The notes: a model not told the origin generated them from the letters alone. Numbered from the stretch's first letter, positions 1 through 32,403 are shown. The stretch: 64,000 nt of DNA from a bacterium (GCA_919901855.1 CAKKQC010000010.1:43214-107213), one strand, 5' to 3'. A program made the numbers and translations.

Positions 1-759
1 GTGCTCGGCCACCGGCTCGAGGGGCACCGGCAGAAGGACGACAACGCGGACCAGACGTTCACGAAGAAGCTCGGCAGCCGGATCCTGCCCGAGTTCATCT
101 CGATCGTGAGCGATCCCACCCGCGACACCATGGCGGGCACCACGCTCATGGGCTCGTACCGGTACGACGACGAGGGTGTCGAGGCGCGGCCCGTTTCCCT
201 CGTCGACCGGGGGGTCCTGAAGTCCTGGATGATGTGCCGCTCGCCCGTCCGGGGCTTCCCGGCGTCGAACGGCCACGGCCGCAAGCAGGCGGGGACCGGC
301 GCGGTGGCCCGGCAGGCGAACCTCCTGGTCGAGGCGTCGCGTACGATGCCCGTGGCGCGCCTGCGCGCGGAACTGATCAGGCTCTGCAAGGCGGCGAAGA
401 AGCCCTACGGGCTCTACTTCGAGGACATCGAGGGCGGGTTCACGTTCACGGGCCGCACTACTCCGAACGCGTTCAACGTCATGCCCGTCGTCGTGCGCCG
501 GATCTTCACCAACGGCCGCCCCGATGAGCTCGTGCGGGGCGTGGACCTGATCGGGACGCCGCTAACGACGCTGGCCCGGATCGTGGCGGCCGGGGACGAC
601 ACCGGGGTCTTCAACGGCTACTGCGGCGCGGAGTCCGGTTACGTCCCCGTCTCGGCGACCTGTCCGACCCTCCTGATCGCGGAGATGGAGATCCAGCGCA
701 AGCAGAAGGGGGAGGAGCGGAATCCCCTCCTGCCCCAGCCCGCGTGGTTGCGGCGATGA
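1..759 (+). CDS. TldD/PmbA-family metallopeptidase, C-terminal part (5' end cut by window edge)
   Basis: Translation carries the conserved SNGHG/GxC region typical of TldD/PmbA (peptidase U62); ORF runs from window edge to TGA at 757-759. Confidence 0.7.
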   Translation: MLGHRLEGHRQKDDNADQTFTKKLGSRILPEFISIVSDPTRDTMAGTTLMGSYRYDDEGVEARPVSLVDRGVLKSWMMCRSPVRGFPASNGHGRKQAGTGAVARQANLLVEASRTMPVARLRAELIRLCKAAKKPYGLYFEDIEGGFTFTGRTTPNAFNVMPVVVRRIFTNGRPDELVRGVDLIGTPLTTLARIVAAGDDTGVFNGYCGAESGYVPVSATCPTLLIAEMEIQRKQKGEERNPLLPQPAWLRR

Positions 760-2534
760 GGGCCTTCGCGGGATTCCTGGCGGCCGCCATGCTCCTCGCC
801 GGCGGCGTCCGGGCGGCCGAGGCGCCCGACCCGATCGTGCGCGCGCTGGAGCCCGAGCTGAGCCGGAACCTCGCGAAGCTCCTGCTGCCCGACCAGCCCC
901 GGCCGTACTGGTTCGCGTTCAGCGGGATGGCGATGGAGAATCTCGAGATCGGCGGGCGGCTCGGCGACATCGTCCAGGACGACCTCTCGCGCCTGCACTA
1001 CCTGCAGGCCCGCATCCGGGTGGGGTCGACGATCATGGACAACACGAACTTCATCGGTTACGGCGACGGGGGGAGCGTGCGGATGACCACGGGCGATGAC
1101 ACGCCCGGGCCGGTCGTGCGCGACGCGTGGCTGGCCGCCGACGGCGCCTACAAGAACGCCGTGGGCACGCTGGCGGCGAAGGAGGCCGCGCTGAAGCGGG
1201 AGACCCAGGAGGACCGCGCGCCGGATTTCTCGCCCGCCGAGCCCGCGGAGGTATGGGAGGAGCCCGCGACGCTGTCCGACGCCGACCGCGGCGTCCTGCG
1301 CGACCACGCTAGAGCGCTCTCGGCCGTCTTCCGCGCCTTCCCCGCGATCCAGCGGGGCGACATCCGGATCAACGCCCGCGCCGCCACGTTCCGGTTCGTG
1401 GATACCGAGGGTTTCCGCTTCCGCGCTTCGCAGCGCGCCGTCCGCATCCTGGTCACGGCGAACACGCAGGCGACCGACGGCACGCCCCTCCAGGACGCCG
1501 TCTCGGTGATGGCGCCGACGGCGCCGGCCCTGCCGTCCGCCGCCTCGCTGGCGGGGACAGCGCGCGCGCTCGCGGAGCGGCTGTCGCGCCGGGTGACCGC
1601 CGAGGGGCTCAAGGACCCGTACCTGGGCCCCGTGCTCTTCACGGCGCCCGCGGCGGCGGAGTTCGTTCGGCAGACGCTGGCCGGCGAGCTCGCGGGCACC
1701 CCCGCGCCGGTCGCCGCCGAGGATTACATGAAGGCCTCGGTCAAGGGCGGCCTGCTCGTGAAGTTCCTGGACCTGCGGGTCCTGCCGGAGTGGATGGACG
1801 TCGTGGATGACCCCGGTCGTACGGAGTGGCAGAGTACGCCGCTATGCGGCGGCTACGCCGTGGACCGCGAGGGCGTGCGCGCTCGCCGGGTGGACCTCGT
1901 GCGCGACGGCCGGCTCGTGAGCCTGCTCATGTCGCGCGCGCCGTCGGACAAGTTCAAGGAGAGCAACGGCCACGGCCGGATCGTGGCGGGCAACATGGCG
2001 CGGGCTGCGATCTCGAACCTGATCATGACCGCGCGCAAAGGGCAAAGCGAGAAGGCCTTGGTGGACCGGCTGCTCAAGATGGCCCGCGCGGAGGGGCTGC
2101 CCTACGCGATCATCGTCCGCCACCTGAACGAGCCGGCGACGGGCGAGGGCGGGGGGCCGAGGCGGATCACGATGGGCACGGGCCGCGAGGACCCCTCGGA
2201 GGCGCCGTCGCGGTGGGGCCTCAGCCCGGCGCTCGACATCGTCCGGGTCGACGTCAGGACGGGAGTCGAGACCCCCCTCCGGGGCGCCATCTTCGGCCCC
2301 GTGGGCGTCGCCGAACTGCGGACCATCGTCGCCGCGGGCGAGGAGTCGGCCGTGTACTCGTTCTTCATTCCGTCCGACATGGTCGGCGTGTACCAGTGGC
2401 CGCAGGAGGACACGCCGGCGTCGATCGTGGCGCCGTCCCTGCTCTTCTCCCAGCTCGAGGTCCGGCCGACGGCGAAGAAGCACGTGCCCCTGCCGTTCCT
2501 GCCGAACCCGTTTTTCGCCAGGGGCGCCCCCTGA
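756..2534 (+). CDS. TldD/PmbA-family protein with N-terminal signal peptide
   Basis: ATG at 756 overlaps upstream stop (ATGA); hydrophobic N-terminus MRAFAGFLAAAMLLAGGVRA; second ESNGHGR motif; paralog of upstream gene. Confidence 0.7.
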   Translation: MRAFAGFLAAAMLLAGGVRAAEAPDPIVRALEPELSRNLAKLLLPDQPRPYWFAFSGMAMENLEIGGRLGDIVQDDLSRLHYLQARIRVGSTIMDNTNFIGYGDGGSVRMTTGDDTPGPVVRDAWLAADGAYKNAVGTLAAKEAALKRETQEDRAPDFSPAEPAEVWEEPATLSDADRGVLRDHARALSAVFRAFPAIQRGDIRINARAATFRFVDTEGFRFRASQRAVRILVTANTQATDGTPLQDAVSVMAPTAPALPSAASLAGTARALAERLSRRVTAEGLKDPYLGPVLFTAPAAAEFVRQTLAGELAGTPAPVAAEDYMKASVKGGLLVKFLDLRVLPEWMDVVDDPGRTEWQSTPLCGGYAVDREGVRARRVDLVRDGRLVSLLMSRAPSDKFKESNGHGRIVAGNMARAAISNLIMTARKGQSEKALVDRLLKMARAEGLPYAIIVRHLNEPATGEGGGPRRITMGTGREDPSEAPSRWGLSPALDIVRVDVRTGVETPLRGAIFGPVGVAELRTIVAAGEESAVYSFFIPSDMVGVYQWPQEDTPASIVAPSLLFSQLEVRPTAKKHVPLPFLPNPFFARGAP

Positions 2535-3721
2535 TGCCCGGAGGGCCGGCCGCTCCCAAGGCCGGATTCTTCAACCTGCCGAAGAACGTCGTCCTGCTCG
2601 GCTGGACGAGCCTGCTCACGGACGTCGGCAGCGAGATGATCCTGCCGATCCTCCCGCTCTTCCTCAAGGGGGCGCTGGGCGCCCCCATCGCGGCCATCGC
2701 GTTCATCGAGGGCGTCGCCGAGGCCACGGCCAACGGGTTCAAGCTCGTGAGCGGCGGGCTCTCGGACCGGATCGGCCGGTCGAAACCCTTCGTCTTTTTC
2801 GGCTATGGGCTCTCGACGATCGTGAAGCCCATCCTCGCGATCGCGCCGACCTGGCACTTCGTCCTCGGGGTCAGGTTCGCGGACCGGGTGGGCAAGGGGC
2901 TCCGGACGGCGCCCCGGGACGCGATCGTGGCCGCCTCGACGCCCAAGGAACAATACGGCAAGGCCTACGGCTTTCACCGGTCGATGGACACGACCGGCGC
3001 GCTCCTCGGCGGGGCGATCGCCATGGTCGTCATGTGGTTCGTGACCGACGTCAACTCGACGGCCATCCGGTGGATGTTCGCGTTCTCCGTGGTCCCGTGC
3101 CTCGCGGCCATGTTCTTCATCGTGCCCGTGCAGGAGGAGGCCGCGCCCCAGCCGGGCAAAGGTCTCCGTCTCATGTTCGACTTCCCGGCGCAGGTGTGGC
3201 TGCTCATGGCCGGAATCACGCTCTGGGAGCTGGGGAACCTCTCGTACGCGCTCGTCCTGCTTCGTATCTATGATCCAGTTGTCGGCGTGAGCGCGAAGTG
3301 GGTCCCCGTCGTCTACTTCGGCTACAACCTCGTCTATCTCGTGGTGGCGATGCCCATGGGGATGCTCTCGGACAAGTTCGGGATCAAGGCGGCGCTCCTG
3401 ACCTCCCCGCTCCTGGGCGCCGCCGCGTTCTGGACGCTCGGGGCGCCGGTGCCGTGGGTGGCGGTGACGGGCGGTATCGTCCTGTACGCCCTGCACTCGG
3501 CCGCGATCAACACGATTCCCCGCGCGGCGGTCGCGCACTACGCGACACCCGGCGCCCGCGGCACGCTCTTCGGCCTCGTCGGCGCCTGCGCGTTCCTCGG
3601 CAACACGCTCGCGGGCCAGATCTGGCAGAGGGTGGACTCCTCGACCGCCATGCGCGTGGCCGGCGCGCTCTCCCTTCTTTCTCTGATCCCCTTCGCCCTC
3701 CTCAAGCCTAAGCAGAGCTGA
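2534..3721 (+). CDS. MFS transporter
   Basis: ATG overlaps upstream stop (TGATG); multiple hydrophobic helices; MFS-like N-terminus (LLGWTSLLTDVGSEMILPILPLF). Confidence 0.75.
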   Translation: MPGGPAAPKAGFFNLPKNVVLLGWTSLLTDVGSEMILPILPLFLKGALGAPIAAIAFIEGVAEATANGFKLVSGGLSDRIGRSKPFVFFGYGLSTIVKPILAIAPTWHFVLGVRFADRVGKGLRTAPRDAIVAASTPKEQYGKAYGFHRSMDTTGALLGGAIAMVVMWFVTDVNSTAIRWMFAFSVVPCLAAMFFIVPVQEEAAPQPGKGLRLMFDFPAQVWLLMAGITLWELGNLSYALVLLRIYDPVVGVSAKWVPVVYFGYNLVYLVVAMPMGMLSDKFGIKAALLTSPLLGAAAFWTLGAPVPWVAVTGGIVLYALHSAAINTIPRAAVAHYATPGARGTLFGLVGACAFLGNTLAGQIWQRVDSSTAMRVAGALSLLSLIPFALLKPKQS

Positions 3722-3793
3722 CGGAAGTCCCGGGGGCCTGACCCCGGCGGCACAGGGTTGATCGTGACAATACGGCCGAGTAAGGTGGGACCG

Positions 3794-5221
3794 ATGGCTT
3801 GTGATGTCTCCGGCGGGGACCGTTTGCCCGCCAGGACGGTTCAAGGGATCTCCTGCCTCCTGCTGGCGGTCATCGTGTCCGGTGCCGCCTTCGGGAGCTG
3901 TCTCGAATGGGAGGCACGTTACGACCCGCCCCCGCCGGGCAACTATGCGGAAGCTCGGAGCGTGGCCGTCGATTCGTCGGGAAATACCGTCACAGTCGGG
4001 TTCGAGACCCGGAACGACTTGGGGCAGGGAAACGACTGGATCCTTCGGAAGTACGACAAGGCGGGGTCTTTGCTGTGGAGCCGGTCATATGCCAGTCCGG
4101 TACACGACGACGCCAATGGGGTGGCTATCGCGCCCGATGGAACCGTGGTCGTGGCGGGGACGGCGGGCGGGTGGTGGATGGTCCGGGCCTACGGGGCTGA
4201 CGGGGCGGACCTCTGGTCGAACACGATGACTGGCGTGTGGCACGCCAATGCTGCGGCCGTGGGTCCCGACGGCAACGTGGTTGTGGTTGGGGGATTCCCC
4301 TTCTGGGTCGTCCGGAAGTACTCACCTGCCGGGGCCATTCTGTGGACCCGGACGTTCACGGACGCCGCCAACCCGTATGACGACGCCTATGGGGTCGCGG
4401 TGGGGCCAGCGGGCGACATTGTGGCGGTCGGGCAATCCTCTCAGGGCTGGTGCATCCGGCTCTACGATGCCGGTGGCAACGACACCGGCGGGTTCGGGGA
4501 GTTTCATGACGGAACCCCCCAGGACGTCGCGACGTCGGTGGCGATGGACGCGGCCGGGAATCTCGTGGTGGGCGGGCGCATCGGGATCGGGATGGGTGTC
4601 CTGCCTATCCAGTTGAAGATGTATGACCATGGTGGCGGTGTGCGATGGTTCCGGAAACTGTGGGCGCCATACACCGCGACGGCTGTCGTGGTCGCCGGCG
4701 ATGCGCGTATCTACGTGGGCTCGGGTGACGGGGTCGTCGGGGTCAAGTCGGCGACCGGTGATCAGGTGTGGCGGGACCGCTTCGACGATCAAGGGATCTA
4801 CATGGATGTCTCAGGGCTCGCGATCGGTCCGAATGGGAGGATGATCGCCGTGGGGGGAGGGGGTTGGGGGACCTTTCGGACTCGCAGCTACTACGATCTC
4901 TCAACGTGTCCCGGGGCGATTCTCTCACCATACGGATCCGGCGACGTGGTGGTGGCCTATCCTAATCCCGTGACGGGAGACACCACGCGGCTCGCGGTCG
5001 CACTTCAGGCCGACGGGGACGAGGTCACGGTCGACCTGTTCAATGCGGCCATGCGGTGCGTCTACACGGGCTCCTGGAGGAACGTGCGGCAGGGGGAGGG
5101 CGGGGTGACGATGACGGGGTTGAGCCGGTTGGCGCCCGGGCTCTACTACGTCAAGGTTCGCGAACGAGGCAGTCGTGGATCGCATGGCTATCCCCTGGCG
5201 CGGCTCGTGATCAAGCGATGA
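3794..5221 (+). CDS. Secreted beta-propeller repeat protein with T9SS-type C-terminal sorting domain
   Basis: RBS AAGGTGG before ATG 3794; ~8 repeats of a DGxVVVxG...W motif; C-terminus YPNPV...VDLFN...GLYYVKV...RLVIKR matches Por-secretion-tail/FlgD-Ig-like pattern. Confidence 0.6.
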   Translation: MACDVSGGDRLPARTVQGISCLLLAVIVSGAAFGSCLEWEARYDPPPPGNYAEARSVAVDSSGNTVTVGFETRNDLGQGNDWILRKYDKAGSLLWSRSYASPVHDDANGVAIAPDGTVVVAGTAGGWWMVRAYGADGADLWSNTMTGVWHANAAAVGPDGNVVVVGGFPFWVVRKYSPAGAILWTRTFTDAANPYDDAYGVAVGPAGDIVAVGQSSQGWCIRLYDAGGNDTGGFGEFHDGTPQDVATSVAMDAAGNLVVGGRIGIGMGVLPIQLKMYDHGGGVRWFRKLWAPYTATAVVVAGDARIYVGSGDGVVGVKSATGDQVWRDRFDDQGIYMDVSGLAIGPNGRMIAVGGGGWGTFRTRSYYDLSTCPGAILSPYGSGDVVVAYPNPVTGDTTRLAVALQADGDEVTVDLFNAAMRCVYTGSWRNVRQGEGGVTMTGLSRLAPGLYYVKVRERGSRGSHGYPLARLVIKR

Positions 5222-6135
5222 TCACCGTGGCGCTTCTGATCGGGGGAATGCTGGCCGGGGGAGCTAACGGCCGGGCGGCGACGCCGGGCGAGGTCACGGT
5301 CTTCGAAGCGGCGGCCGTGCGGGGCAACGCCCTGCTCGCGCCGATGGACGCCCGCCGTACCGGCCTCGGCGAGGCGTTCGTGGCGGCCGGCGATGACGGA
5401 TCGGCGGCGGGCAATCCGGCCGGCCTGGGTCAGGTGACGCGGCCCGGTGTCTTCGGGAGCTACCACAGGGCGGGAAGCGCCTACAACGCCACTCACGCCG
5501 GCGTGGCGGTGCCGCTCGGTCCGGGGACCCTCGCGGCGGGTTTCTCGTACTTCGATCTCGGCCGGCCGGACTTGCGGGACGCCGATGGGTGGGGTCTCTC
5601 GCCCCAGTCGTTCTACGACTACGCGCTCTTCCTTGGCTGGGGCATGGCCAATCCGGGCTGGACCGGGATTCCCGGCTGGATGGGCGTCTCCGTGGAGGCC
5701 GTGCAGGAAGGTGTGGGAGGAGCAGCGGAGGCGGTCACTTTCGGGGAAGTGGTGCCGCTGGGCGACAAGCTCAAGGCGGGCGTGATGGTGGAACATCTTG
5801 GCGTCAAGCTGGATGGATACGCGCTGCCTTCCGCCGGAAGGATCGGGGCCGTATACCAAGTGGCTCCCACGCTCGATGGGGCCGTGGACGTGCGCTACGG
5901 GTTCACGGATCGTCAGACCGATTTGGCAGTGGGGTTCGAGGCCTTCCGTGACCGGGCGCTTCAGCTTCGCGCCGGCTACCGTGTGCAGTCGCCCTCCCTC
6001 GGTGCGGGCTCCATGGCGGGACTCTCATTCGGAGTGGGCGCGCGCTGGAAGGGGTTTCATCTCGACTACGCGTTCCAGTCCTACGGTGACATCGGGAGCG
6101 GCCAGTTCGTGACCCTCGGTTGGGGAGGCCGGTAG
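5218..6135 (+). CDS. Putative secreted/outer-membrane protein, possibly T9SS-associated
   Basis: ATG overlaps upstream stop (ATGA); N-terminal signal-like MITVALLIGGMLAGGANG; G/Y/F-rich beta-strand-like composition; function unknown. Confidence 0.4.
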   Translation: MITVALLIGGMLAGGANGRAATPGEVTVFEAAAVRGNALLAPMDARRTGLGEAFVAAGDDGSAAGNPAGLGQVTRPGVFGSYHRAGSAYNATHAGVAVPLGPGTLAAGFSYFDLGRPDLRDADGWGLSPQSFYDYALFLGWGMANPGWTGIPGWMGVSVEAVQEGVGGAAEAVTFGEVVPLGDKLKAGVMVEHLGVKLDGYALPSAGRIGAVYQVAPTLDGAVDVRYGFTDRQTDLAVGFEAFRDRALQLRAGYRVQSPSLGAGSMAGLSFGVGARWKGFHLDYAFQSYGDIGSGQFVTLGWGGR

Positions 6136-6177
6136 CGGCTCCATTCCCTGTGGCATGATGGGCTTGGAGACAGAAAC

Positions 6178-6390
6178 ATGACCGTCGCACAGATCGAACG
6201 CATGATCAGCCGCCTGCCGAAGGCCACCCAGGCCGACCTGGTGCGCCGACTCGAGGCGAAGACCTGGTGCATCCGGTTCACGGCCGTGGTCGGGAAGCTC
6301 CGTCGGCAGGCCGGCCGGGTCCGGGACGCCGAGATCACCCGGGTCGTTGAGGAAGTCAGGCAGGCCCGGTATGCATCGGGCGGACATTGA
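6178..6390 (+). CDS. Hypothetical small protein (70 aa)
   Basis: ORF with GGAGA-type RBS about 7 nt upstream of ATG; no recognisable motif. Confidence 0.3.
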   Translation: MTVAQIERMISRLPKATQADLVRRLEAKTWCIRFTAVVGKLRRQAGRVRDAEITRVVEEVRQARYASGGH

Positions 6391-6421
6391 CGCGGCTTCC
6401 CGCCTCTGGGAGGATATAGCC

Positions 6422-6709
6422 ATGAACACGGCTATGTCATTCATCAATACCGTGACCCTGAAGAACGAGGCCAACAAGGTGATCCGCCGGGTCACCCGGT
6501 CGCGGGCGCCGGTTATCGTGACGCAACGCGGCAAGCCTGCCGTCGCCATCATCCCGGTTGATGATGGCGCGCTCGAGCTCTCGTATGCTCACCGCTACCA
6601 GGCGGCGATCCAGGAGGGACTGGCCGACTACCGGGCCGGTCGTCACGTGCCTCTGGGCGCGTTCGTCAAGAAGCACTTCCCCCGGCACGTCGAGCGCCTG
6701 TCGCGGTAG
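6422..6709 (+). CDS. Type II antitoxin, Phd/YefM family
   Basis: RBS GGGAGG 7 nt upstream; N-terminus MSFINTVTLKNEANKVIRRV...PVIVTQRGKPAVAIIPVDD is Phd/YefM-like; followed 16 nt later by toxin gene. Confidence 0.65.
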   Translation: MNTAMSFINTVTLKNEANKVIRRVTRSRAPVIVTQRGKPAVAIIPVDDGALELSYAHRYQAAIQEGLADYRAGRHVPLGAFVKKHFPRHVERLSR

Positions 6710-6725
6710 CGCTCCAGAGTCGGCG

Positions 6726-7046
6726 ATGCCGGCCGAATCACAGGGTGCCACCGGACCCGTTGGCCTCCCGGCTAATGCCCGGCTCTTGGCGCGTGCCGAA
6801 CGCGATCTGCTCGACCTGCTCCGCCGTAATCCCCGGGAAGCGCTGCGAGTCATCGAGGACATCATCCGGCTGGCGCGCCGTGACCTCCCCTTGGGTCAGG
6901 TGAAGAAACTGCCGGGCATGGGGGTGAACCGGGAGCTTTCCAGCGGCCGCTTTCGCGTCGTGCACTTCTGGAACAATGGGCGGCTCTTCATCGTGACCGT
7001 CTTCCCCAAGAAGGATCAGCGCAAAGTCTTCCGGCATCTGCCATAA
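6726..7046 (+). CDS. Type II toxin, RelE/ParE family
   Basis: C-terminal RVVHFWNNGRLFIVTVFPKKDQ is RelE/ParE-like; size ~106 aa; directly downstream of antitoxin. Confidence 0.65.
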   Translation: MPAESQGATGPVGLPANARLLARAERDLLDLLRRNPREALRVIEDIIRLARRDLPLGQVKKLPGMGVNRELSSGRFRVVHFWNNGRLFIVTVFPKKDQRKVFRHLP

Positions 7047-7124
7047 CCGCCGCCGGGGAGTTGCGGGTCCTCAGTAATTGGGGGACGTGCTGAGCAAGTT
7101 ACGCGCGAGAAGTGGCCACGGTCT

Positions 7125-8402
7125 CTACGCGCCTTCGGCCAGCTTGCGGTAGTGCTCCGGGGGCTGGAAGATGCCGCCGGTCATCTCGTGGTAGATCGCG
7201 TCGAGATCGAACCCGCCGCGGCGGACCTCGGTCCACGAGGCGCCGGCCTTGGGATGGTACGACTGCATCGTCGTCCAGTTCGCGTAGTACTGGGAGCCGT
7301 TGGTCTCGAACGCGGGGGCGTCGAGGCCGGGGAGCGCGGGCAGGCGGGCCGCCACGGCCTTGTTCCAGTCCACGAGGATCGGGGAGACCGTTAGATCGGC
7401 GACGAAGCAGGGGATCCTGGCAGCCGTGGCTGCGGCCAGCATCCGGAGTGTGATCGAGAGCGTCTTGGCCGCGGGCTTGAGCGCGATCGCGCCGTAGCCG
7501 AGCGCGATGCGCCGCCGGACCTCGACGTCCGAGTGCGCGCTCTCGTCGGCGGCGACGCGGACCCCGAGGTCGCCGACGTTGACTTCCAGCTCCTCCGGGT
7601 ACGGCTCCTCGAGCAGCACGATCCGGTCGAAGGCGCCGATGGCTCGGGTATGGTCGAGCAGTCGGTTGAGCCGGTCGGGGGAGTCGTACCGGCCGTTGGC
7701 ATCTAGATAATAGAGGACGTCGCCGCCGGCCGCGTTGTGGATTTCCTCCACCCGCCGCATGTCCCAGCGGACCATCTTCTCGGGGTCGCCGTCGCCCTCC
7801 GGGTCCGACCCGATCTTGATCTTGAGCAGGCGGTGGCCGTCTTCCACGAGCCCCCGGATCCGGTCCGTCGGAATCGCGTACCCGACGAGCGGGATGATCG
7901 TCAGCCGCGTCGCCAGCGGGCTCAGCAGGTCCCGTTCCCCGGCCGTGAGGAGATTGTTCAGCCGCGAGGTCGCGTGCGACCGGGCGTGCAACTGCCACGC
8001 GGCGTTGTCGAGCGCGACGAGGGCGTTGAGCACGAACGTCAGCCGCACGTCGAGGCCGGTGACGGCTTTCGCCTTCGCGATCGCGCCGGGCAGGACCGAG
8101 TCCAGGAGCTGACCCGGCCGGCTGAACGGAATCCCGGCGGCGCGGCGGGCGGCATCCTCGAGCACGGCGAACATGAACTCGTTGCCCCGGTCGCTTCCGT
8201 GGCGCATGAAGACCTCGCGGTCGGACCAGAGGACCCCCTGGGTGCAGAGCCCGACGCCGAGGCGGCCCTCGGTGTCCCGGAGCGCGACCACGGTCTGCCA
8301 CAGGTCGGTCTGGGCCCCGCCCTTGAACCCGAGCGGCGTCGAGAGGGGCTCGCGCTCGCAGGCGCACCGGGCGGAGGCGACAACGACGGGGGGATGGTCC
8401 AT
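7125..8402 (-). CDS. Enolase-superfamily enzyme (mandelate racemase/muconate lactonizing enzyme family)
   Basis: MR/MLE motifs in order: KIKIG (KxK), LDANGRY (DxN), LEEP, ADES; start taken at MDHPP (ATG 8402-8400 on minus strand). Confidence 0.75.
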   Translation of the reverse strand: MDHPPVVVASARCACEREPLSTPLGFKGGAQTDLWQTVVALRDTEGRLGVGLCTQGVLWSDREVFMRHGSDRGNEFMFAVLEDAARRAAGIPFSRPGQLLDSVLPGAIAKAKAVTGLDVRLTFVLNALVALDNAAWQLHARSHATSRLNNLLTAGERDLLSPLATRLTIIPLVGYAIPTDRIRGLVEDGHRLLKIKIGSDPEGDGDPEKMVRWDMRRVEEIHNAAGGDVLYYLDANGRYDSPDRLNRLLDHTRAIGAFDRIVLLEEPYPEELEVNVGDLGVRVAADESAHSDVEVRRRIALGYGAIALKPAAKTLSITLRMLAAATAARIPCFVADLTVSPILVDWNKAVAARLPALPGLDAPAFETNGSQYYANWTTMQSYHPKAGASWTEVRRGGFDLDAIYHEMTGGIFQPPEHYRKLAEGA

Positions 8403-8464
8403 AGTGCCGTTATCGTAGCGCGTTGTCCGGCCGGTCTTTCGCCGGGGGCGGCGGGGGTGCGATA

Positions 8465-9640
8465 ATGCAGACCTCCATGAAACGCACACTGGAGGCCCTC
8501 GGCTCCCTCAAGCTCGCCGTCGTCGGCATGGTCCTGCTCATGCTGCTAGTCGGGGCATGCACGCTGGCGCAGGTCCGGCTCGGCATCTACGGCGCCGTCG
8601 CGGTCTATATCCGCACGTTCCTCGTCTGGGTCCGGGTCCCCGGCACCGCGCTATCGGTGCCCGTATTCCCCGGCGGGGGATTCGTCGGGTTGCTCCTCAT
8701 CGTCAACATGACCGCCTCGCTCGTGACCCGCTGGTCGGCGGGCCGGCTGAAGCCGGGCCTCGCCCTCACCCATATCGGCGTCATCCTCCTGCTCGCGGGC
8801 GAGTTCCAGACGGCCTTCCGCGCCCACGAGTCATCGCTGTCCATCGAGGTCGGGCAGACGCTCGACTACACCGAGGCGACCCGGCGCACGGAACTCGCGA
8901 TCGAGGAGGGGAAGGCCCCGGCGGCCCACGGAACGAAGGCGGAGGCGACGCCAGCGGGGAAGCCGCTCGCGACGATCTCCGAGCGCGACCTGGCCCGCGG
9001 CGGCGAGCTGGCCCTGCCGGGCCTTCCGGTGTCGCTCAAGGTCCTGCGGTTCCTCCGCAACGGGCACCTCGTGATGCAGAAGGAGGCCGCGGCCGGCGCG
9101 ATCGTGGTGACGGCCGGGTCCGGCCGGAAGCTCACGGTCGTCGAGCTGCCCGCCGCGACGTCGGACGACGAGCCGGAAACCCCCGTCGCGTACGTCGAGG
9201 CGGTCGCGGGGGGCAAGAGCCTGGGCGTCTGGCTCGTGTCGCCCGTGCTCGGACCCCAGGTCCTCGAGGCGGGGGGGCGCAAGCTGGCCCTCTCCATGCA
9301 CCCGGAGCGGGTCTGGATGCCGTTCACGCTCACGCTCAAGCACTTCAGCCACGACGTCTATCCGGGCACCGATATTCCGCGCAACTTCTCGAGCCTCGTC
9401 CGGCTCGTGGACGCGGAACGGCACGAGGATCGTGACGTCCTGATCTGGATGAACCACCCCTTAAGGTACCGCGGCCTGACCTTCTACCAGGCGAGCTACG
9501 GGAAGGGCGACACGCTCTCGGTCCTGCAGGTGGTCCGCAACCCCGGCTGGATCCTGCCGTATCTTTCGTGCCTGATCGTGACCGTCGGCATGGCGTGGCA
9601 TTTCCTCCTCAGGCTGGCGGCGGCCCGGAGGGACCCGTGA
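8465..9640 (+). CDS. resB: Cytochrome c biogenesis protein ResB/Ccs1 (system II)
   Basis: N-terminal TM helix, large soluble domain, C-terminal TM helices; stop overlaps the ccsA start (GTGA). Confidence 0.7.
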   Translation: MQTSMKRTLEALGSLKLAVVGMVLLMLLVGACTLAQVRLGIYGAVAVYIRTFLVWVRVPGTALSVPVFPGGGFVGLLLIVNMTASLVTRWSAGRLKPGLALTHIGVILLLAGEFQTAFRAHESSLSIEVGQTLDYTEATRRTELAIEEGKAPAAHGTKAEATPAGKPLATISERDLARGGELALPGLPVSLKVLRFLRNGHLVMQKEAAAGAIVVTAGSGRKLTVVELPAATSDDEPETPVAYVEAVAGGKSLGVWLVSPVLGPQVLEAGGRKLALSMHPERVWMPFTLTLKHFSHDVYPGTDIPRNFSSLVRLVDAERHEDRDVLIWMNHPLRYRGLTFYQASYGKGDTLSVLQVVRNPGWILPYLSCLIVTVGMAWHFLLRLAAARRDP

Positions 9641-11511
9641 GCGCCTTGTTGAAGAAACACCTCGCCTGGCTGGCGCCGGTCCTGATCGCGCTCTGGGTGG
9701 CCGGCTCATTGCGCGCGCCGAAGCGGGCCGACGGCGCGGACATCGCGGGATTCGCCGCGCTCCCGGTCCTGCACGAGGGACGGGTCAAGCCCCTGGACAC
9801 CGTGGCCCGGTCGAGCCTGCTGGCGCTGCGCGGCAAGCAGACGATTCCGGTCCGCGGCCGCACCGTTGGCGCGGCGGAGTGGCTGCTCGACATGAACGCG
9901 CGACCCGGCGTCGCCGACACCTATGAGGTCTTCGGGATCGACAGTCCGGACGTTCTCGGGGCCGCCGGGTTGGGGCCTACCGACCGGCGCCGGTTCTCGA
10001 TGAAGGAACTACAGCCCGGCCTGCCCGAGCTCGGCTCGCAGGCCGAGCAGGCGGACGCCGTGCCCGCGCGGGAGCGGAGCCGGTTCCAGGTCGCGATCCT
10101 GGGGCTCAACTCGCGGTTCATGACGTACCGGGGACTGCAGAACAGCCTGGCGCCCGGGGATACGGCGGACTACCCCGGCGAGATCGCCGCGTACGCCAAG
10201 GTGCTCGGCCCGGGCATCAAGGCGCTCCACGCGCATCGGACGGGCGCCGGGATCGACCGCAAGGCCCTGTCGGCGCTGGGCGGCTACTTCCGGCGCTACC
10301 AGTACATGGCCGAGAGCGCCCCGTTCCGGGCGCTCCCGCCCCGGGACGGGGACCCCGCGGACGCCTGGGAGAACGCGGGCGAGGGGCTGATCGAGGGGAT
10401 GCAGACGGGCGAGATCCACCCCCATGTGGCCGTGTTCGCGGGGCTGCTGGACGCGTGGAAGCGCGGTGACGCCAAGGCGTTCAACGCCGGGCTCGGGGAA
10501 TACCGGCGCTGGCTGGCCGACCACGCGCCGAAGGCGGCCCGCGCCGCGGTGGCCGAGGTCCTCTTCAACCGCGCCCAGCCCTTCTACGCCGGCATGGTCA
10601 TCTACGTCCTCGCGCTCCTGCTCGGGTTCGCGGCGTGGCTGGTATGGCCCGAGACACTCCGGCTCACGGCGTTCCGCCTCATGGCGCTCGCCTGGGGGAT
10701 TCACACGGCCGGGCTCGCGTTCCGGATCATCCTGCAGGGGCGCCCCCCGGTCACGAACCTCTACTCCTCCGCGGTCTTCGTCGGCTGGGCCTCGGTGGGG
10801 CTGGGCCTCGAGCTCGAGCGCCGGTTCCGCAACGGGCTGGGGACCGTCGTCGGGGCCCTGATCGGGTTCGTGACGCTCATCATCGCGCACCATCTCGCGG
10901 CCCAGGGCGACTCGATGGAGATGATGCGGGCGGTGCTCGACTCGAACTTCTGGCTGGCCACGCACGTGGTGACGATCACGATCGGGTACGCGGCGACCTA
11001 CCTCGCGGGCGTTCTGGCCATCGCGTACATCCTCCGGGGCACGCTGACGCGGTCGCTCGACGAGGCGCAGGCGGCGGCACTCTCGGGCATGGTGTACGGC
11101 ATCGTGGCCTTCGCCCTCTTCTTCAGCTTCATCGGGACCGTGCTGGGTGGGATCTGGGCGGACCAGTCGTGGGGCCGGTTCTGGGGCTGGGACCCGAAGG
11201 AGAACGGGGCGCTGCTCATCGTGCTCTGGATGGCCGTGATCCTGCACGCGCGGAACCGGTACGTCTCGGACCGCGTGATCATGGTCATGGCCGTCTTCGG
11301 GAACGTCATCACGAGCCTGTCCTGGTTCGGCGTGAACATGCTCGGGATCGGCCTGCACTCGTACGGGTTCATGGACCGCGCGTTCCTATGGCTCTCGGTC
11401 TTCGTCGCGTCCCAGCTCGCGGTGATGGGGCTGGGGCTCATGCCGCTCCACCGCTGGCGCTCCCGCCTCCCCGGCGAGCCGGGCCCGTCTCCGTTCCTGC
11501 CGGAGCGCTGA
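9637..11511 (+). CDS. ccsA: Cytochrome c biogenesis protein CcsA/ResC (system II)
   Basis: Tryptophan-rich WWD motif ADQSWGRFWGWDPKENGALL; polytopic; translationally coupled to resB. Confidence 0.85.
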   Translation: MSALLKKHLAWLAPVLIALWVAGSLRAPKRADGADIAGFAALPVLHEGRVKPLDTVARSSLLALRGKQTIPVRGRTVGAAEWLLDMNARPGVADTYEVFGIDSPDVLGAAGLGPTDRRRFSMKELQPGLPELGSQAEQADAVPARERSRFQVAILGLNSRFMTYRGLQNSLAPGDTADYPGEIAAYAKVLGPGIKALHAHRTGAGIDRKALSALGGYFRRYQYMAESAPFRALPPRDGDPADAWENAGEGLIEGMQTGEIHPHVAVFAGLLDAWKRGDAKAFNAGLGEYRRWLADHAPKAARAAVAEVLFNRAQPFYAGMVIYVLALLLGFAAWLVWPETLRLTAFRLMALAWGIHTAGLAFRIILQGRPPVTNLYSSAVFVGWASVGLGLELERRFRNGLGTVVGALIGFVTLIIAHHLAAQGDSMEMMRAVLDSNFWLATHVVTITIGYAATYLAGVLAIAYILRGTLTRSLDEAQAAALSGMVYGIVAFALFFSFIGTVLGGIWADQSWGRFWGWDPKENGALLIVLWMAVILHARNRYVSDRVIMVMAVFGNVITSLSWFGVNMLGIGLHSYGFMDRAFLWLSVFVASQLAVMGLGLMPLHRWRSRLPGEPGPSPFLPER

Positions 11512-11515
11512 TCCC

Positions 11516-12151
11516 GTGCCGATGCTGCTCGAGCCCGGCGACGTGGTCGTGTTCCAGGGCGACAGCATAACGGACGCCGGGCGGGACCGCGGAGTCGCGG
11601 ACTCGATGGGGTCCGGATACGCCATGATCGCCGCGGGGTGGTTCTCGGCCGCGTATCCCGACCGGTGCGTCCGGTTCATGAACCTCGGGATCAGCGGCGA
11701 CCGGGTGAAGGATCTCAAGGCGCGGTGGCAGGCCGACTGCGTCGGCCTGCGTCCGACGTGGATCTCGATCCTCGCCGGCATCAACGACGTCTGGCGGCGG
11801 TACGACTCGGACGACCCGACTCCCGTCGAGGCGTTCCGGGCGGGGTATCGCGACCTCCTGACGGCCGCGCGCGCCGCGGGGGACGCGCACGTCATCATTA
11901 TGGAGCCCTTCCTGCTTCACGCGAAGCCGGGGCAGGAGCGCTGGCGCGAGGACCTGGACCCCAAGATCGCGGCGGTCCGGGAGCTGGCGGCCGAGACGGG
12001 CGCGATCCTGATCCCGCTCGACCGGCTCTTCGCGGACGCCTGCCGGCGCCAGGATCCCGCGTTCTGGGCCGCCGACGGGGTGCACCCGACGCCCGCCGGG
12101 CACGCGCTGATCGCCCGGGCGTGGCTGGACGCGGTCGGGGGGGCTTGCTGA
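11516..12151 (+). CDS. SGNH/GDSL hydrolase family protein
   Basis: GDS block VVVFQGDSITDAG near N-terminus; C-terminal DGVHPT (catalytic Asp/His block). Confidence 0.75.
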   Translation: MPMLLEPGDVVVFQGDSITDAGRDRGVADSMGSGYAMIAAGWFSAAYPDRCVRFMNLGISGDRVKDLKARWQADCVGLRPTWISILAGINDVWRRYDSDDPTPVEAFRAGYRDLLTAARAAGDAHVIIMEPFLLHAKPGQERWREDLDPKIAAVRELAAETGAILIPLDRLFADACRRQDPAFWAADGVHPTPAGHALIARAWLDAVGGAC

Positions 12152-12966
12152 TGGCGACGATCCTGCTCCGGGCGGCCTTCGCCGGCTACCTGGGCGGGAC
12201 GCTCGCGTTCCTGGGGTACCTGGCGACGAGGCGGCACGGGCTGGCGAAGATCGGGCTGGGCCTCTCGGTGGCGGCCCTGGCGGTGCACACGGCCTCCTAC
12301 GGCACGGACTGCGCCGTGTACCGGGCGATGGTGATCGTGACCCCGCGCGGCATGTGCTCGCTGCTCGCGTTCGTGACGGCGGCGCTGACTCTCGCGATCG
12401 CCGCGCGCCACCGGCTCCTGATCCTGGGCGCGTTCATCATGCCCATCGTCGCGATCCTCGCCGGCGTCGCGGTCGCGGCTCCCGAGCCCGGGACCCCGGC
12501 GGTCGTCCTCCAGGGCCCGCTCTTTCCACTGCACGTCTGGACCACCTACCTCGGGTTCGCGGGGTTCACGGTCGCGTTCGGCGTGGCCGTGGCGTGGCTC
12601 GTGCAGGAGCGCGAGATCCGGTCGCGCCATCCCAAGCCGCTCGCGTTCGTGCTCCCGCCGTTGGACACGATCGAGCGGCTGAGCCTGTCGCTCGTGAACC
12701 ATGCGCTCCTGCTGACGGGGGCGGGCATCGTGACGGGCGTCCTGTACCTCAAGCAGACCGACGGCGTGTGGTGGGCGTGGGAGCCGAAGGCGACGGCGAC
12801 CGTTGCCTGCTGGGGAATCTACGCGGCGGTACCCGTGCTTCGCCGGACGGCGGGCTGGCGGGGCCGCCGGCTGGCGCTCCTCCTCGTCGCCGGGTTCGTA
12901 TTCGTCGTCTTCATCTTTGGTGGCCTCAGCCACCTGCCCGGGCCGCTCAAGCCGGGTCCGCGCTAG
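12151..12966 (+). CDS. Cytochrome c assembly family membrane protein (HemX-like, CcsA family)
   Basis: Polytopic membrane protein with WAWEPKATAT region; TGATG overlap with upstream gene; position immediately upstream of hemA as in hemAXCDB operons. Confidence 0.6.
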   Translation: MATILLRAAFAGYLGGTLAFLGYLATRRHGLAKIGLGLSVAALAVHTASYGTDCAVYRAMVIVTPRGMCSLLAFVTAALTLAIAARHRLLILGAFIMPIVAILAGVAVAAPEPGTPAVVLQGPLFPLHVWTTYLGFAGFTVAFGVAVAWLVQEREIRSRHPKPLAFVLPPLDTIERLSLSLVNHALLLTGAGIVTGVLYLKQTDGVWWAWEPKATATVACWGIYAAVPVLRRTAGWRGRRLALLLVAGFVFVVFIFGGLSHLPGPLKPGPR

Positions 12967-12976
12967 CCCTCCAGCC

Positions 12977-14269
12977 ATGGGCCTGCTGTGCCTGGGCCTG
13001 TCGCATCGCACGGCGCCGCTCGCCGTGCGGGAACGCCTGGCGTTATCCCGGGACGAGATCGCGGAGGCGGCGGCCATGGTCCGGCGCCTCTCCGGCATCG
13101 ACGAGGCCGTGGTGGTGTCCACCTGCAACCGGATCGAGCTCTACATCGCCGGGGCCGGCCGCGCGGCCGGGCCGGCCGAGCCGCCCGGGGTGGCGTGGCG
13201 CCGCACCGTCGGCGCGGTCGTCCGGCTCCTCGCCAAGGCTCGCCGGGTGCCGGCGGGCGTCCTCGCCCGGTCGTCGTACGTGCACGCGGACCTCGACGCC
13301 GTGCGCCACCTGATCGAGGTCGCGGCCGGCCTCGACTCCCAGGTCGTGGGGGAGGCCCAGATCCTGCCCCAGGTGCGCCGCGCCCACGAGGCCTCGTTGC
13401 GCGCGGGCGCGACGGGCCCGGTCCTGAACGGCGTCTTCAACCGGGCCCTGGCCGCCGCCAAGCGCGTTCGCACCGAGACCGAGATCGGACGGCTGCCGGC
13501 GTCCGTGAGCTCGGTCGCCGTGGACCTCGCGGAACGGATCTTCGGCGAGCTGGCCGGGCGCACGGTGCTCCTGATCGGGACCGGCGAGACGGCGGAGCTC
13601 GTGGCCGAGAACCTGGTCGGGGACAGCGATCTCATGGTCCTGGTGGCGAGCGAGCGGCACCACGAGGCCGCCCGGCGAATCGCGCACCGGTTCGGGGGCG
13701 AGGCCATCGAGCTCGCGGCGGTGCCGGCTGCGCTGGCCCGCGTGGACATCGTGATCGCGGCCACGGCGGTCAAGGAACCGGTTATCCTCCGGGCCCACCT
13801 CGCCGCGGCCATGGCGCACCGCAAGGCGCGCCCCATCTTCCTCGTCGACCTCGGCGTCCCGCGCAACATCGAGGCGGGCGCCGGCGACGTGGCCGGCGTC
13901 TACCTCTACGATCTCGACGACCTCAAGGGGGTGGCGGACGGCAACCTGAAGCGCCGGGAGGAATGGATCGCGCCCGCGCGCCGCATCGCGGAGGCGGAAG
14001 TGGCGGCGACCGGAGCGTGGCTCGCCACCCTCGAGGTCGTCCCCGTCATCCGCGACCTCGAGCGGTTCGGCGAGGCCTGCCGGCAGGCCGTGCTGGCGCG
14101 CGCCGGCCGGCGCGTGCGCGACCTGCCGCCGGAGACGCGGGAGGAGGTCGAGTACCTGACGAAGGCGCTGGTGGCCAAGCTGCTGCACCCGCCGATCCGC
14201 AACCTCAAGGACCTGCCCGGTCCGGGGCGGTACGCCGACCTCGTGCGCCGGCTCTTCGGATTCCAGTGA
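12977..14269 (+). CDS. hemA: Glutamyl-tRNA reductase
   Basis: N-terminus MGLLCLGLSHRTAPLAVRERL...VVVSTCNRIELY is the HemA signature. Confidence 0.9.
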   Translation: MGLLCLGLSHRTAPLAVRERLALSRDEIAEAAAMVRRLSGIDEAVVVSTCNRIELYIAGAGRAAGPAEPPGVAWRRTVGAVVRLLAKARRVPAGVLARSSYVHADLDAVRHLIEVAAGLDSQVVGEAQILPQVRRAHEASLRAGATGPVLNGVFNRALAAAKRVRTETEIGRLPASVSSVAVDLAERIFGELAGRTVLLIGTGETAELVAENLVGDSDLMVLVASERHHEAARRIAHRFGGEAIELAAVPAALARVDIVIAATAVKEPVILRAHLAAAMAHRKARPIFLVDLGVPRNIEAGAGDVAGVYLYDLDDLKGVADGNLKRREEWIAPARRIAEAEVAATGAWLATLEVVPVIRDLERFGEACRQAVLARAGRRVRDLPPETREEVEYLTKALVAKLLHPPIRNLKDLPGPGRYADLVRRLFGFQ

Positions 14270-15198
14270 TCGCCGCGCCGTTGCGGCTCGGCACGCGGGG
14301 GAGCCCGCTCGCGCTCGCGCAGGCGACGCTCGTGGAACGCACCCTCGCGGCCGCGCACCCCGGCCTAGTCGTGGAGCGGATCGTGATCAGGACGACCGGG
14401 GACCGGGCCCCGCAGACGGGGTCATTGGAAACAGGCGGGCCGATGCCGGGCAAGGGCGTCTTCGTGAAGGAGATCCAGGAGGCCCTGCTCGCGCAGGTCG
14501 TGGACGTCGCCGTCCACAGCCTCAAGGACCTGCCCGTCGAGCCCGTGCCCGGCCTCACTCTCGCCGCGGTCCTGCCCCGCGAGGACGTGCGCGACGCGTT
14601 CTGTTCCCGGGACGGCCGGACGCTGGACGAGCTGGAGCCGGGCGCGCGGGTGGCGACCGGGAGCCTGCGGCGCGAGACCCAGCTCCGCCGGGCCTACCCG
14701 CACTTCGCGTTCGTCCCCATTCGCGGCAACGTGGACACGCGGCTGCGCAAGGTTCGCGAGGGCCAGGCTGAAGGCACGATCCTGGCGCGCGCCGGGCTCG
14801 TGCGGCTCGGGCTGGAGGCGGCGGTTACGGAGCTGATCCCGGCTGCCGTGTGCCTGCCCGCGCCGGGCCAAGGCGCGATCGGGTGCGAGGTGCGGAGCGA
14901 CGACCGGGTCACGGGCGATGTCATCCGCTGCCTCGACCATCCGGCGACCATGACCGCGGTCGTCGCCGAGCGCGCGTTCCTGCGGCGGCTCGGCGGCGGC
15001 TGCCGGACGCCGATCGCGGCCTGGGGACAGCCGGAGCCCAAGGGGACGATCACGCTCCACGGGTTCGTCGGGAACCCGCGGGGACCCGAGTTCCTCGCCT
15101 CGTCGGTGACCGGACCCGCGACCGGGGCGGAGGCGCTGGGCACGAGGCTGGCCGAGCGTTTCCTCGCCGAGGGCGCTGCCGCGTTCCTGACGGAATGA
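14266..15198 (+). CDS. hemC: Hydroxymethylbilane synthase (porphobilinogen deaminase)
   Basis: GTG start overlapping hemA stop; LRLGTRGSPLALAQA N-terminus; GGGCRTPIAA cofactor-binding region. Confidence 0.9.
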   Translation: MIAAPLRLGTRGSPLALAQATLVERTLAAAHPGLVVERIVIRTTGDRAPQTGSLETGGPMPGKGVFVKEIQEALLAQVVDVAVHSLKDLPVEPVPGLTLAAVLPREDVRDAFCSRDGRTLDELEPGARVATGSLRRETQLRRAYPHFAFVPIRGNVDTRLRKVREGQAEGTILARAGLVRLGLEAAVTELIPAAVCLPAPGQGAIGCEVRSDDRVTGDVIRCLDHPATMTAVVAERAFLRRLGGGCRTPIAAWGQPEPKGTITLHGFVGNPRGPEFLASSVTGPATGAEALGTRLAERFLAEGAAAFLTE

Positions 15199-28920: not shown

Positions 28921-28952
28921 GCGGGGTATGATACTCCAATCGGACCAGGGCG

Positions 28953-30584: not shown

Positions 30585-30613
30585 GAGGGTAGAATAGAGG
30601 GCGGGGAGACTGC

Positions 30614-31702: not shown

Positions 31703-31703
31703 C

Positions 31704-32381: not shown

Positions 32382-32403
32382 GGCCCCCGGTGGGCAGGGC
32401 AAA

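Follow-up and report, generated by a model that had tools for sequence, protein, structure and literature searches.

Introduction

In type IX secretion (by the T9SS), the C-terminal sorting domain (CTD) of a substrate binds the loops of PorV inside the SprA pore, after which carrier and substrate are drawn out sideways as a complex (PMC10994853). PorU and PorZ, which retain their CTDs, remain attached to PorV and PorQ, respectively, and according to a published hypothesis a CTD is shielded from cleavage by its cognate PorV-like barrel (PMC10202324). Genes for type-B cargo are linked to those of their cognate PorP/SprF carriers, and PorV is said to serve every type-A CTD (PMC12618676). Here we describe two adjacent genes, A and B, at positions 3794-6135 of the plus strand of a 64,000-nt stretch of bacterial DNA (GCA_919901855.1 CAKKQC010000010.1:43214-107213), the whole of which is called the window below. 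We read the pair, with a probability of about 0.68, as a translationally coupled, two-gene cargo/carrier-anchor cassette of the type-IX kind. Four observations carry this reading: the domain architecture of the two products, the homology of the tag at the C-terminus of A, the homology and fold of B, and the recurrent adjacency of such genes.

How does this locus compare with the described systems? Protein B resembles PorV (LptO; F. johnsoniae 6H3I chain F, P. gingivalis PG0027) in its modelled 14-strand FadL-fold barrel, its plug and the motif GxG..A..DD.SA..NPAGL; PorV is its best profile and structural match, B is likewise proposed to bind a type-A-like CTD, and porV is likewise encoded beside a CTD protein, PorU. 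In contrast to PorV, to which it is 17-19% identical, B is ~100 aa shorter, does not have a ~65-residue loop insertion, stays below the cut-off of the family model NF033709 and scores 15 bits on the PorV equivalog. Furthermore, B is apparently dedicated to one coupled cargo, whereas PorV serves all type-A cargo, and it comes from a phylum without a demonstrated translocon. A second likeness is to the anchor pairs PorQ-PorZ and PorV-PorU in the attachment complex of P. gingivalis, in that a CTD protein keeps its CTD and stays bound to a PorV-family barrel (PMC10202324), PorZ combines a propeller with a CTD as A does, the CTD profile of A matches the PorU and PorZ CTDs best, and the PorQ model gives B 34 bits. 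The differences are that A has one 330-aa SBBP propeller and, apart from the CTD, resembles neither PorZ nor PorU, and that no lipopolysaccharide delivery or sortase role is implied for A and B. In P. gingivalis, to our knowledge, the genes porQ and porZ do not lie side by side.

The order of the genes, a cargo gene and then the gene for its own outer-membrane carrier, is that of type-B CTD cargo with PorP/SprF-like carriers (SprB-SprF; PMC9143113, PMC12618676), whereas the CTD of A is of the type-A kind (TIGR04131 being silent) and B belongs to the PorV/PorQ family (PF11751 being silent). The tail of A shares with type-A CTDs (TIGR04183/PF18962) and with the FlgD Ig-like domain (PF13860) its C-terminal position, its length of ~90 aa, the YPNP and G-x-Y motifs and a terminal basic motif, and profile comparison connects it to CTDs that clear the TIGR04183 cut-off; it differs in forming a distinct subtype under both curated cut-offs. 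From FadL and TodX channels, B is set apart by the lack of a significant profile match (CymD at 0.017, no PF03349) and by a genomic partner that is a CTD protein rather than genes of lipid or aromatic catabolism.

In the mechanism that we propose, A would be exported by Sec and would fold in the periplasm into a seven-bladed propeller followed by a C-terminal beta-sandwich tag. The extracellular loops of B, a compact 14-strand outer-membrane barrel of the PorV/PorQ family, would bind this tag, making B the carrier of A out of a SprA/Sov-type translocon that would be encoded elsewhere in the genome. B would then probably serve as the permanent surface anchor of A, the tag remaining uncleaved, as PorQ does for PorZ or PorV for PorU, and the overlap of the two genes may lead to roughly 1:1 synthesis of the two proteins.

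An overlapping gene pair in Candidatus Coatesbacteria

The features of the pair, all on the plus strand and in window coordinates, are as follows.

3782..3788, plus: Shine-Dalgarno-like AAGGTGG, 5 nt 5' of the gene A ATG (direct sequence reading)
3794..5221, plus: gene A, putative secreted cargo protein of 475 aa (open reading frame; TGA at 5219-5221)
3794..3898, plus: putative N-terminal export signal of A, aa 1-35 (by inspection: basic n-region, hydrophobic ISCLLLAVIVSGAAF, then G-S-C)
3902..4891, plus: predicted seven-bladed beta-propeller passenger, aa 37-366 (AlphaFold2 strands; recurrent W/G repeat columns)
4949..5218, plus: CTD, aa 386-475, predicted beta-sandwich of the T9SS type-A kind (profile matches; AlphaFold2 strands)
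5218..5221, plus: ATGA start/stop overlap of genes A and B (sequence, within ...AAGCGATGATC...)
5218..6135, plus: gene B, predicted outer-membrane PorV/PorQ-family barrel (FadL fold) of 305 aa (open reading frame from ATG 5218)
5218..5280, plus: putative signal peptide of B, aa 1-21, MITVALLIGGMLAGGANGRA, cleaved before A (by inspection; hydrophobic N-terminus ending ...NGRA, then A)
5305..5442, plus: predicted N-terminal plug (hatch) of B, family motif ...ARR.GLGEAFVA.GDDGSAAGNPAGLG (short helices at 37-70)
5446..6126, plus: predicted 14-stranded transmembrane beta-barrel of B, aa 77-303 (AlphaFold2 model)

The open reading frame (ORF) of gene A opens with a TTG at 3758 and contains the ATG at 3794. 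We prefer the latter as the start, because AAGGTGG precedes it and metagenome gene calls give a protein of 475 aa. Independent metagenome gene callers also returned products of 475 and 305 aa, and the codon-position G+C of both genes follows the pattern of real genes. A preliminary reading of this DNA, made from the sequence alone (hereafter the sequence-only reading), had given a 475-aa protein within 3794-6135 and an ATGA overlap with the next gene; both are borne out, with the ATG at 5218 overlapping the stop codon of A and the same 4-nt overlap recurring in a relative. The window has a G+C content of ~70%, and the G+C content at third codon positions (GC3) is 0.79-0.82 in A and B vs 0.90-0.94 in the flanking genes. 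A promoter and terminator scan of positions 3500-7200 returned nothing informative.

Protein B is 100% identical to GenBank MEK7474957.1, 'MAG: hypothetical protein AAB152_04900 [Candidatus Coatesbacteria bacterium]', and the lineage of the window, which the sequence-only reading had left undecided, is Candidatus Coatesbacteria (Coatesiibacteriota). Neither gene is annotated: B is 'hypothetical' in GenBank, and precomputed Pfam hits exist for neither A nor B. The parts are of known kinds yet divergent enough to lack annotation. Possible annotation names would be T9SS type-A-like sorting-domain protein for A and PorV/PorQ-family protein for B.

The tail of protein A is a divergent type-A-like sorting domain

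The CTD of A, which comprises ~90 aa and runs to the stop codon, follows a linker (aa 375-385) that is disordered in the AlphaFold2 model (predicted local distance difference test score, pLDDT, <50). Within it, the model places strands at 386-389, 398-402, 408-416, 422-429, 438-440, 449-459, 462-465 and 469-473 (pLDDT 73-90). The tail motifs quoted by the sequence-only reading (YPNP, VDLFN, GLYYVKV and LVIKR) are all present in A.

We built a hidden Markov model (HMM) from 45 CTDs of proteins encoded beside PorV-like genes at 33 genome loci in other phyla, with A and its relatives excluded, and scored it on all ORFs in the window and at the previously collected metagenome loci (L001-L013). This leave-out HMM matched the tail of A at 35.5 bits (i-E 7e-10), its sole match in the window. 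TIGR04183 was passed, at 23-40 bits, by eight of ten proteins sampled from the loci behind the HMM. The model of type-B CTDs, TIGR04131, gave no match on A. When a profile of 18 CTDs, that of A included, was compared with the PDB, it matched the CTDs of PorU (6za2, 5e-11) and PorZ (5m11, 2.7e-7), FlgD Ig domains (~2e-7) and also the CTDs of substrates caught within the SprA-PorV translocon (8glk_D and 8glj_D; RemZ-type); gingipain CTDs were matched weakly.

Conserved among the aligned CTDs are YPNP, APG-x-Y (APGLYYV in A) and a basic residue before the last strand; in A this residue is R470, in 'ARLVIKR', and its column holds K or R in 18 of 18 sequences. One conserved lysine of type-A CTDs hydrogen-bonds to PorV loops (PMC10994853). 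The subtype to which the CTD of A belongs has a signature of its own, ...G(L/V)SRWAPG(L/V)Y...(R/K)(L/V)V(I/V)KR. Searched exhaustively with an HMM, 1.84 billion representative proteins yielded 504 matches to this subtype at E<=1e-3 and 132 at E<=1e-10 (~130 clusters at 50% identity). It stands at the extreme C-terminus in all matches listed, the proteins being 95-3,236 aa long. The passengers of 49 full-length members include adhesin-like domains (CARDB, 21; DUF11, 15), DUF7507 (20), propellers of the SBBP (12) and Kelch (4) kinds and proteases (subtilases, 2), and PF18962 matches just 10 of the 49 at E<=1e-3. Because the position is always extreme C-terminal and the passengers are unrelated, the subtype acts like a sorting or anchoring tag of surface proteins. 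A word-indexed search for Coatesbacteria CTD cargo with the CTD profile returned four short fragments. Taken at the level of sequence, these comparisons identify the tail of A as what appears to be a divergent subtype of the T9SS type-A CTD.

Protein B is a member of the PorV/PorQ family

The sequence-only reading had taken the second gene for a signal-peptide protein of beta-barrel-like composition, and the analysis agrees: B has a hydrophobic N-terminus, and its AlphaFold2 model (pLDDT 86, pTM 0.81) is a 14-strand barrel with an N-terminal plug. Residues 2-13 form a helix that is followed by a low-confidence stretch, and the signal pattern is kept in the related proteins P0002 and P0003. The plug carries the invariant motif ...A..DD.SA..NPAGL. 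Across 51 homologs, A53, N66, P67 and L70 show strict conservation, with D60, A68 and G69 almost as constant. The NPA motif is a hallmark of the FadL superfamily; a FadL 'delta NPA' entry is among the structures listed for the model of B.

A Foldseek search with the model returned chain F of 6H3I, the PorV of F. johnsoniae, as the best PDB match (E 3e-10, TM 0.70), followed by FadL and TodX. A profile of B and 50 homologs, compared with all PDB sequences, matched PorV (6h3i_F) at E 8.7e-38 and 133 bits, with CymD next at 0.017. NF033709, the model of the PorV/PorQ family, aligns to B over profile positions 6-319 of 326 with 69.6 bits (E 3.4e-19; curated cut-off 90), and an Elusimicrobia relative of B at locus L017 clears that cut-off at 155 bits. 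Scores on the narrower models are 34.3 bits for PorQ (cut-off 220), 15.4 for PorV (250) and 21.3 for PorV2 (325). The Pfam labels of B homologs are PF03687 (UPF0164, the commonest), PF19572 (PorV) and PF03349 (FadL), and some homologs in Elusimicrobia and Desantisbacteria are named 'PorV/PorQ family protein' by NCBI. B is therefore a member of the PorV/PorQ family with a FadL fold.

In PorV, F115 contacts the conserved CTD lysine (PMC10994853). The L2 segment 'YFDLG' of B aligns with the PorV segment 'YFGFG' around F115, and on this alignment it may correspond to the segment of PorV that contacts the CTD.

Two other identities of B were considered. The sequence-only reading had compared the pair to a cargo with a PorP/SprF-type partner; the linked outer-membrane barrel stands, given the recurrent adjacency described below, whereas PorP/SprF itself is ruled out, neither PF11751 nor any PorP-family model in Pfam or NCBIfam matching B at E<=1, and its place is taken by PorV/PorQ. 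Identity as a FadL/Toluene_X transporter is disfavoured, with no PF03349 match and FadL-type PDB sequences at 0.017 at best.

Some PorV-like barrels carry a C-terminal extension (P0004 at L006 6491-7876; L048 10001-11422; P0042; P0055; L017 9854-11545), which is CsgG/LpoB/TolB_N-like in the closest subfamily of B, whereas other barrels have TPR repeats there. The extension suggests that these barrels have a tether or partner in the periplasm, which B itself lacks.

The gene pair recurs with unrelated passengers

A related genome (locus L001) contains the same pair, with 55% identity for A and 68% for B, in genes at 2628-4058 and 4055-4972 that again overlap by 4 nt; an MR/MLE enzyme, ResB/CcsA and heme synthesis genes are shared as neighbours. 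The 4-nt overlap is also found in the pair of locus L007, and overlapping stop and start codons recur in cassettes across phyla. More distant homologs of B (30-38% identity) lie directly 3' of unrelated large secreted proteins with the same kind of CTD tail (735, 696 and 1,896 aa). Within the B subfamily (at least 35% identity), all seven of seven genes stand behind one whose product has this CTD subtype at its end, and the cargo passengers there (476, 735, 1695 and 1896 aa) are unrelated to one another.

Over the window and 106 other loci from genomes and metagenomes, chosen by their similarity to B, a CTD gene lies immediately upstream of 68 of 117 PorV-like genes, a count for which the CTD HMM had itself been iterated on these loci and in which the locus sets partly overlap. 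In the window, the early metagenome loci L001-L009 and the GTDB loci (33, with no Coatesbacteria genome among them), 44 PorV-like genes have a CTD gene upstream in 28 cases, downstream in 9 and on neither side in 11; for 73 evaluable genes at the Joint Genome Institute (JGI) metagenome loci, the figures are 40, 18 and 21. The downstream class consists of CTD proteins of ~700-1,150 aa, and some genes are flanked on both sides, so that the classes exceed the totals. The pairing of A with B exceeds chance.

The metagenome-assembled genomes (MAGs) that bear cassettes are labelled Elusimicrobia, Desantisbacteria, Firestonebacteria, Fraserbacteria, WOR-3, Zixibacteria and others. Two or three cassettes occur on single contigs (L009/L010, L024, L041 and L103). 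At ~70% G+C, several contigs with B-subfamily genes resemble those of Coatesbacteria, and they were obtained in the same series of sediment metagenomes; the further barrels found there (35-39% identity) each lie behind a different cargo. This suggests, but does not prove, that there are several paralogous cassettes per genome. Two PorV-like genes stand in tandem after one CTD gene at L029 (7354-9261), L091 and L100, and three barrels are interleaved with CTD genes at L103 (2489-7334), an arrangement that points to local duplication of cassettes.

A different arrangement was seen at L034, L035, L037, L040, L042, L043 and L045 (KSB1 and unclassified MAGs), where a PorV with a loop insertion is followed by a protein of ~970-1,110 aa. 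Five tested downstream proteins (~1,050-1,110 aa) match NF052323, 'T9SS-dependent M6-like inactivated metalloprotease', one of them reaching the curated cut-off; matches were found in the tested loci L035, L040, L043 and L045, with L040 alone above that cut-off. At L045, a bona fide PorU (628 bits) lies upstream of PorV, which makes this a canonical attachment-complex locus. Considering these canonical-looking loci in KSB1 and its relatives, T9SS attachment parts exist in candidate phyla beyond Bacteroidota.

Might B instead be the general PorV (or PorQ) of its organism, serving all CTD cargo and merely lying beside one of them? All type-A CTDs of Bacteroidota use one PorV (PMC12618676), porU and porV are adjacent in the canonical loci found here, and PorZ, the partner of PorQ, likewise consists of a propeller and a CTD (5m11, matched by the CTD profile). 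However, outside its CTD, A matches neither PorZ nor PorU (neither NF052228 nor NF033707 is among its NCBIfam matches at E<=1). Moreover, the high-G+C contigs of the same sediment series hold further B-subfamily barrels with a different cargo each, and single contigs carry two or three cassettes. We consider a general carrier quite unlikely, and prefer the reading of B as the carrier of its own neighbour.

Evidence against the cassette and two further explanations

Several observations weigh against the cassette reading, and they are gathered here. The first group concerns the curated models. On A, TIGR04183 scores 20.4 bits (E 3.8e-4; curated cut-off 23) and PF18962 18.5 bits (E 2.5e-3; curated cut-off 27). 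Since both scores are sub-threshold, A stands outside curated CTD membership, although the near-miss is still significant as homology. The T9SS sorting domain announced by the sequence-only reading thus holds as type-A-like by profile (35.5 bits, 7e-10) and falls short on the curated models. B, for its part, remains below the NF033709 cut-off of 90 bits, and a Pfam scan of it gave no match, PF19572 of PorV included. It is also shorter than PorV and lacks the ~65-residue insertion that PorV has between positions equivalent to 228 and 233 of B, which by strand order would sit in extracellular loop 5. PorVs beside PorU in other candidate phyla have an insertion at the same position. Because it is absent, B may dock on SprA differently from PorV. 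The adjacency counts are subject to the iteration of the HMM and the overlap of locus sets stated above, and the correlation between the pairwise identities of CTDs and of barrels (Spearman 0.40, 351 pairs) is confounded by phylogeny.

The sub-threshold scores count in favour of an explanation in which the adjacency has no meaning for secretion, B being a FadL-type channel for hydrophobic substrates and the tail of A an Ig/FlgD-like domain on a periplasmic or lipid-anchored propeller. FlgD_ig (PF13860) scores 16.5 bits on the tail, near the 18.5 bits of Por_Secre_tail (PF18962), and both align, as TIGR04183 does, to residues ~389-459; the CTD profile matches FlgD structures; and A and B are both under curated cut-offs. 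Furthermore, PorV/UPF0164-like barrels occur in phyla without T9SS, and PF03687 is the commonest label of B homologs. This explanation must nevertheless accommodate a B family profile that reaches 8.7e-38 on PorV vs 0.017 on the FadL-type CymD, with PF03349 absent on B, a tail that is always at the extreme C-terminus in >130 clusters with unrelated passengers, and an adjacency with overlapping stop and start codons that recurs across phyla. It appears very improbable to us, and the cassette remains the preferred reading of the pair.

The second group of adverse observations concerns the secretion machinery. The contig was read over ~79 kb of its 222.6 kb (the window, which begins near position 43,000, 4.8 kb upstream via locus L011 and 10 kb downstream), with Pfam run on likely-gene ORFs at 16.8-64 kb and precomputed Pfam used for 0-16 kb and both flanks. 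No SprA/Sov, PorK/L/M/N, PorT, PorU or PorW/SprE was found in the ~79 kb, in keeping, for the window, with the sequence-only reading. Single-sequence, iterated and leave-out HMMs detected no further CTD or PorV-like gene in the window or in the 10 kb 3' of it, and the leave-out CTD HMM found no match in the 4.8 kb upstream. No T9SS core gene stands beside the related cassettes examined, and the large neighbouring ORFs tested are not SprA. The predicted exported hydrolases of the window (sulfatases, GH3, GH16, GH130 and AXE1) are none of them CTD-tagged. Lastly, according to published surveys T9SS is confined to Bacteroidota (PMC4793230) or to the Fibrobacteres-Chlorobi-Bacteroidetes (FCB) superphylum (PMC11205867), and the NCBI taxonomy places Candidatus Coatesiibacteriota under 'Bacteria candidate phyla', outside the FCB group.

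A further explanation is a minimal system independent of T9SS, without SprA or PorKLMN, in Coatesbacteria and in other phyla with cassettes outside Bacteroidota, in which the PorV-like barrel, perhaps together with BAM (the machinery for beta-barrel assembly), takes up the CTD through a lateral opening and displays or anchors its single cargo, somewhat in the manner of two-partner or type-V secretion. In its favour, the ~79 kb around the pair holds no T9SS core gene. The cassettes are isolated two-gene modules amid unrelated metabolic genes (that of L048, for example, has unrelated neighbours only), with no tested large neighbour being SprA. They also occur in MAGs of Elusimicrobia, Desantisbacteria, Firestonebacteria, Fraserbacteria and WOR-3, T9SS having been reported from Bacteroidota/FCB only, and B is without the long loop insertion of the canonical PorVs beside PorU. 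However, a plugged 14-strand barrel of the FadL type has too narrow a pore to pass a folded propeller of 330 aa, or passengers that reach 3,200 aa, all characterised CTD/PorV-type pairs work downstream of SprA, and canonical porU-porV-M6i loci are present in several of the same candidate phyla (KSB1 and relatives). Because T9SS genes are normally scattered, little follows from the lack of core genes in 79 kb when the genome spans several megabases. We therefore regard a system of this kind as unlikely; equally doubtful is the corresponding view that self-contained cassettes give surface display without SprA or PorKLMN, either as an ancestral minimal form of the T9SS carrier cycle or as a separate display route.

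At these loci, type-A-like tags are paired one-to-one with PorV-family barrels, whereas Bacteroidota use one PorV for all type-A cargo and have gene-linked cognate carriers for type-B cargo only, from a different barrel family (PMC12618676). In the literature searched, we found no description of an arrangement of one cargo with one PorV-like carrier for type-A-like CTDs, and no paper linking Coatesbacteria or Elusimicrobia to T9SS; most of the MAG groups that bear cassettes lie outside the lineages with reported T9SS. If the cassette reading is correct, T9SS-type sorting would extend beyond the FCB group, and the published hypothesis of cognate PorV-like barrels holding uncleaved CTDs would gain support. 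The ~100 natural CTD/carrier pairs could then also allow a recognition code to be derived by co-variation. Should the genomes prove to be without SprA, the cassettes would point to a new outer-membrane display route.

Export signal and propeller of protein A

Residues 17-28 of A, within the putative export signal, form a helix of low pLDDT in the AlphaFold2 model, and the junction 'GSCL(E/D)WEA' that follows the hydrophobic segment is kept in A and in its ortholog P0057. On inspection of this junction, a signal-peptidase I site of the form AxG, with cleavage before S, seems more likely than a lipobox. Lipidation at the conserved Cys36 was considered and is unlikely, position -3 being F in A and C in P0057. 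The cysteine of the junction (window 3794-3910) could mark lipidation or a disulfide.

The AlphaFold2 model of A, built with 42 homologs, has a mean pLDDT of 84. Residues 37-366 contain 28 strands, mostly with pLDDT >85, in seven groups of four; the ~8 propeller-like repeats counted by the sequence-only reading are accordingly to be replaced by seven four-stranded blades. Against Pfam and NCBIfam, A gave weak SBBP, delta-60 and PQQ_2 matches in the propeller, and its homologs are SBBP (PF06739) or delta-60 (PF17164) propellers with assorted C-terminal tails (PF18962, PF13860 and PEP-CTERM). A fold search with full-length A returned the CylK propeller as the best PDB match and then generic WD40/NHL propellers. 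Because these are the nearest solved folds, the passenger has no recognisable catalytic assignment, and because propellers alone were returned, the search is uninformative on the CTD. The propeller may serve in binding or adhesion rather than as a recognisable enzyme.

Surrounding genes

The neighbours of the pair are a gene of the major facilitator superfamily (MFS), a toxin-antitoxin pair and genes of heme and cytochrome c biogenesis. Directly after the pair, positions 6178-7046 (plus strand) encode proteins of 70 aa, 95 aa (a PhdYeFM antitoxin) and 106 aa, resembling a type II toxin-antitoxin module, and a different module (70 aa and a PIN toxin) lies directly before the pair in the related genome (L001 2035-2635). 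The differing modules and the lower GC3 of A and B hint that the region of the pair is perhaps a variable or acquired spot. Further downstream, positions 8423-16953 (plus strand) hold System II cytochrome c genes (ResB, CcsA and a second CcsA-like gene) and heme genes (GlutR, HemC, HemD and ALAD); the cluster is interrupted by a GDSL lipase and is syntenic in the related genome.

The last third of the window and the sequence beyond it (41251-64000, continuing in L120 1-10000) are rich in genes for glycan degradation, with three sulfatases, a GH3 enzyme with PA14, GH130, GH16 and an AXE1 esterase, accompanied by MFS transporters and an AraC regulator; none of these proteins carries a CTD. A 1,269-aa protein of the DUF11 type just past the window is likewise without a CTD. 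A large protein with DUF6785 (407 bits) and DUF6784, at 37273-39330 on the minus strand, belongs to a strongly conserved family. At 32382-34951 (plus strand), a Kelch-repeat propeller without a CTD comes after a family-2 glycosyltransferase; Kelch propellers that bear the A-type CTD are present elsewhere. Immediately upstream (30593-32381, plus strand), a Ras/Arf-like small GTPase (369-aa ORF) and a Roadblock/LC7 protein resemble an MglA/MglB-like polarity pair. The many long antisense ORFs with very high first-position G+C found throughout the window, for example at 639-1841 (minus strand), 7707-8465 (plus strand) and 28914-30473 (minus strand), are artefacts of the 70% G+C content.

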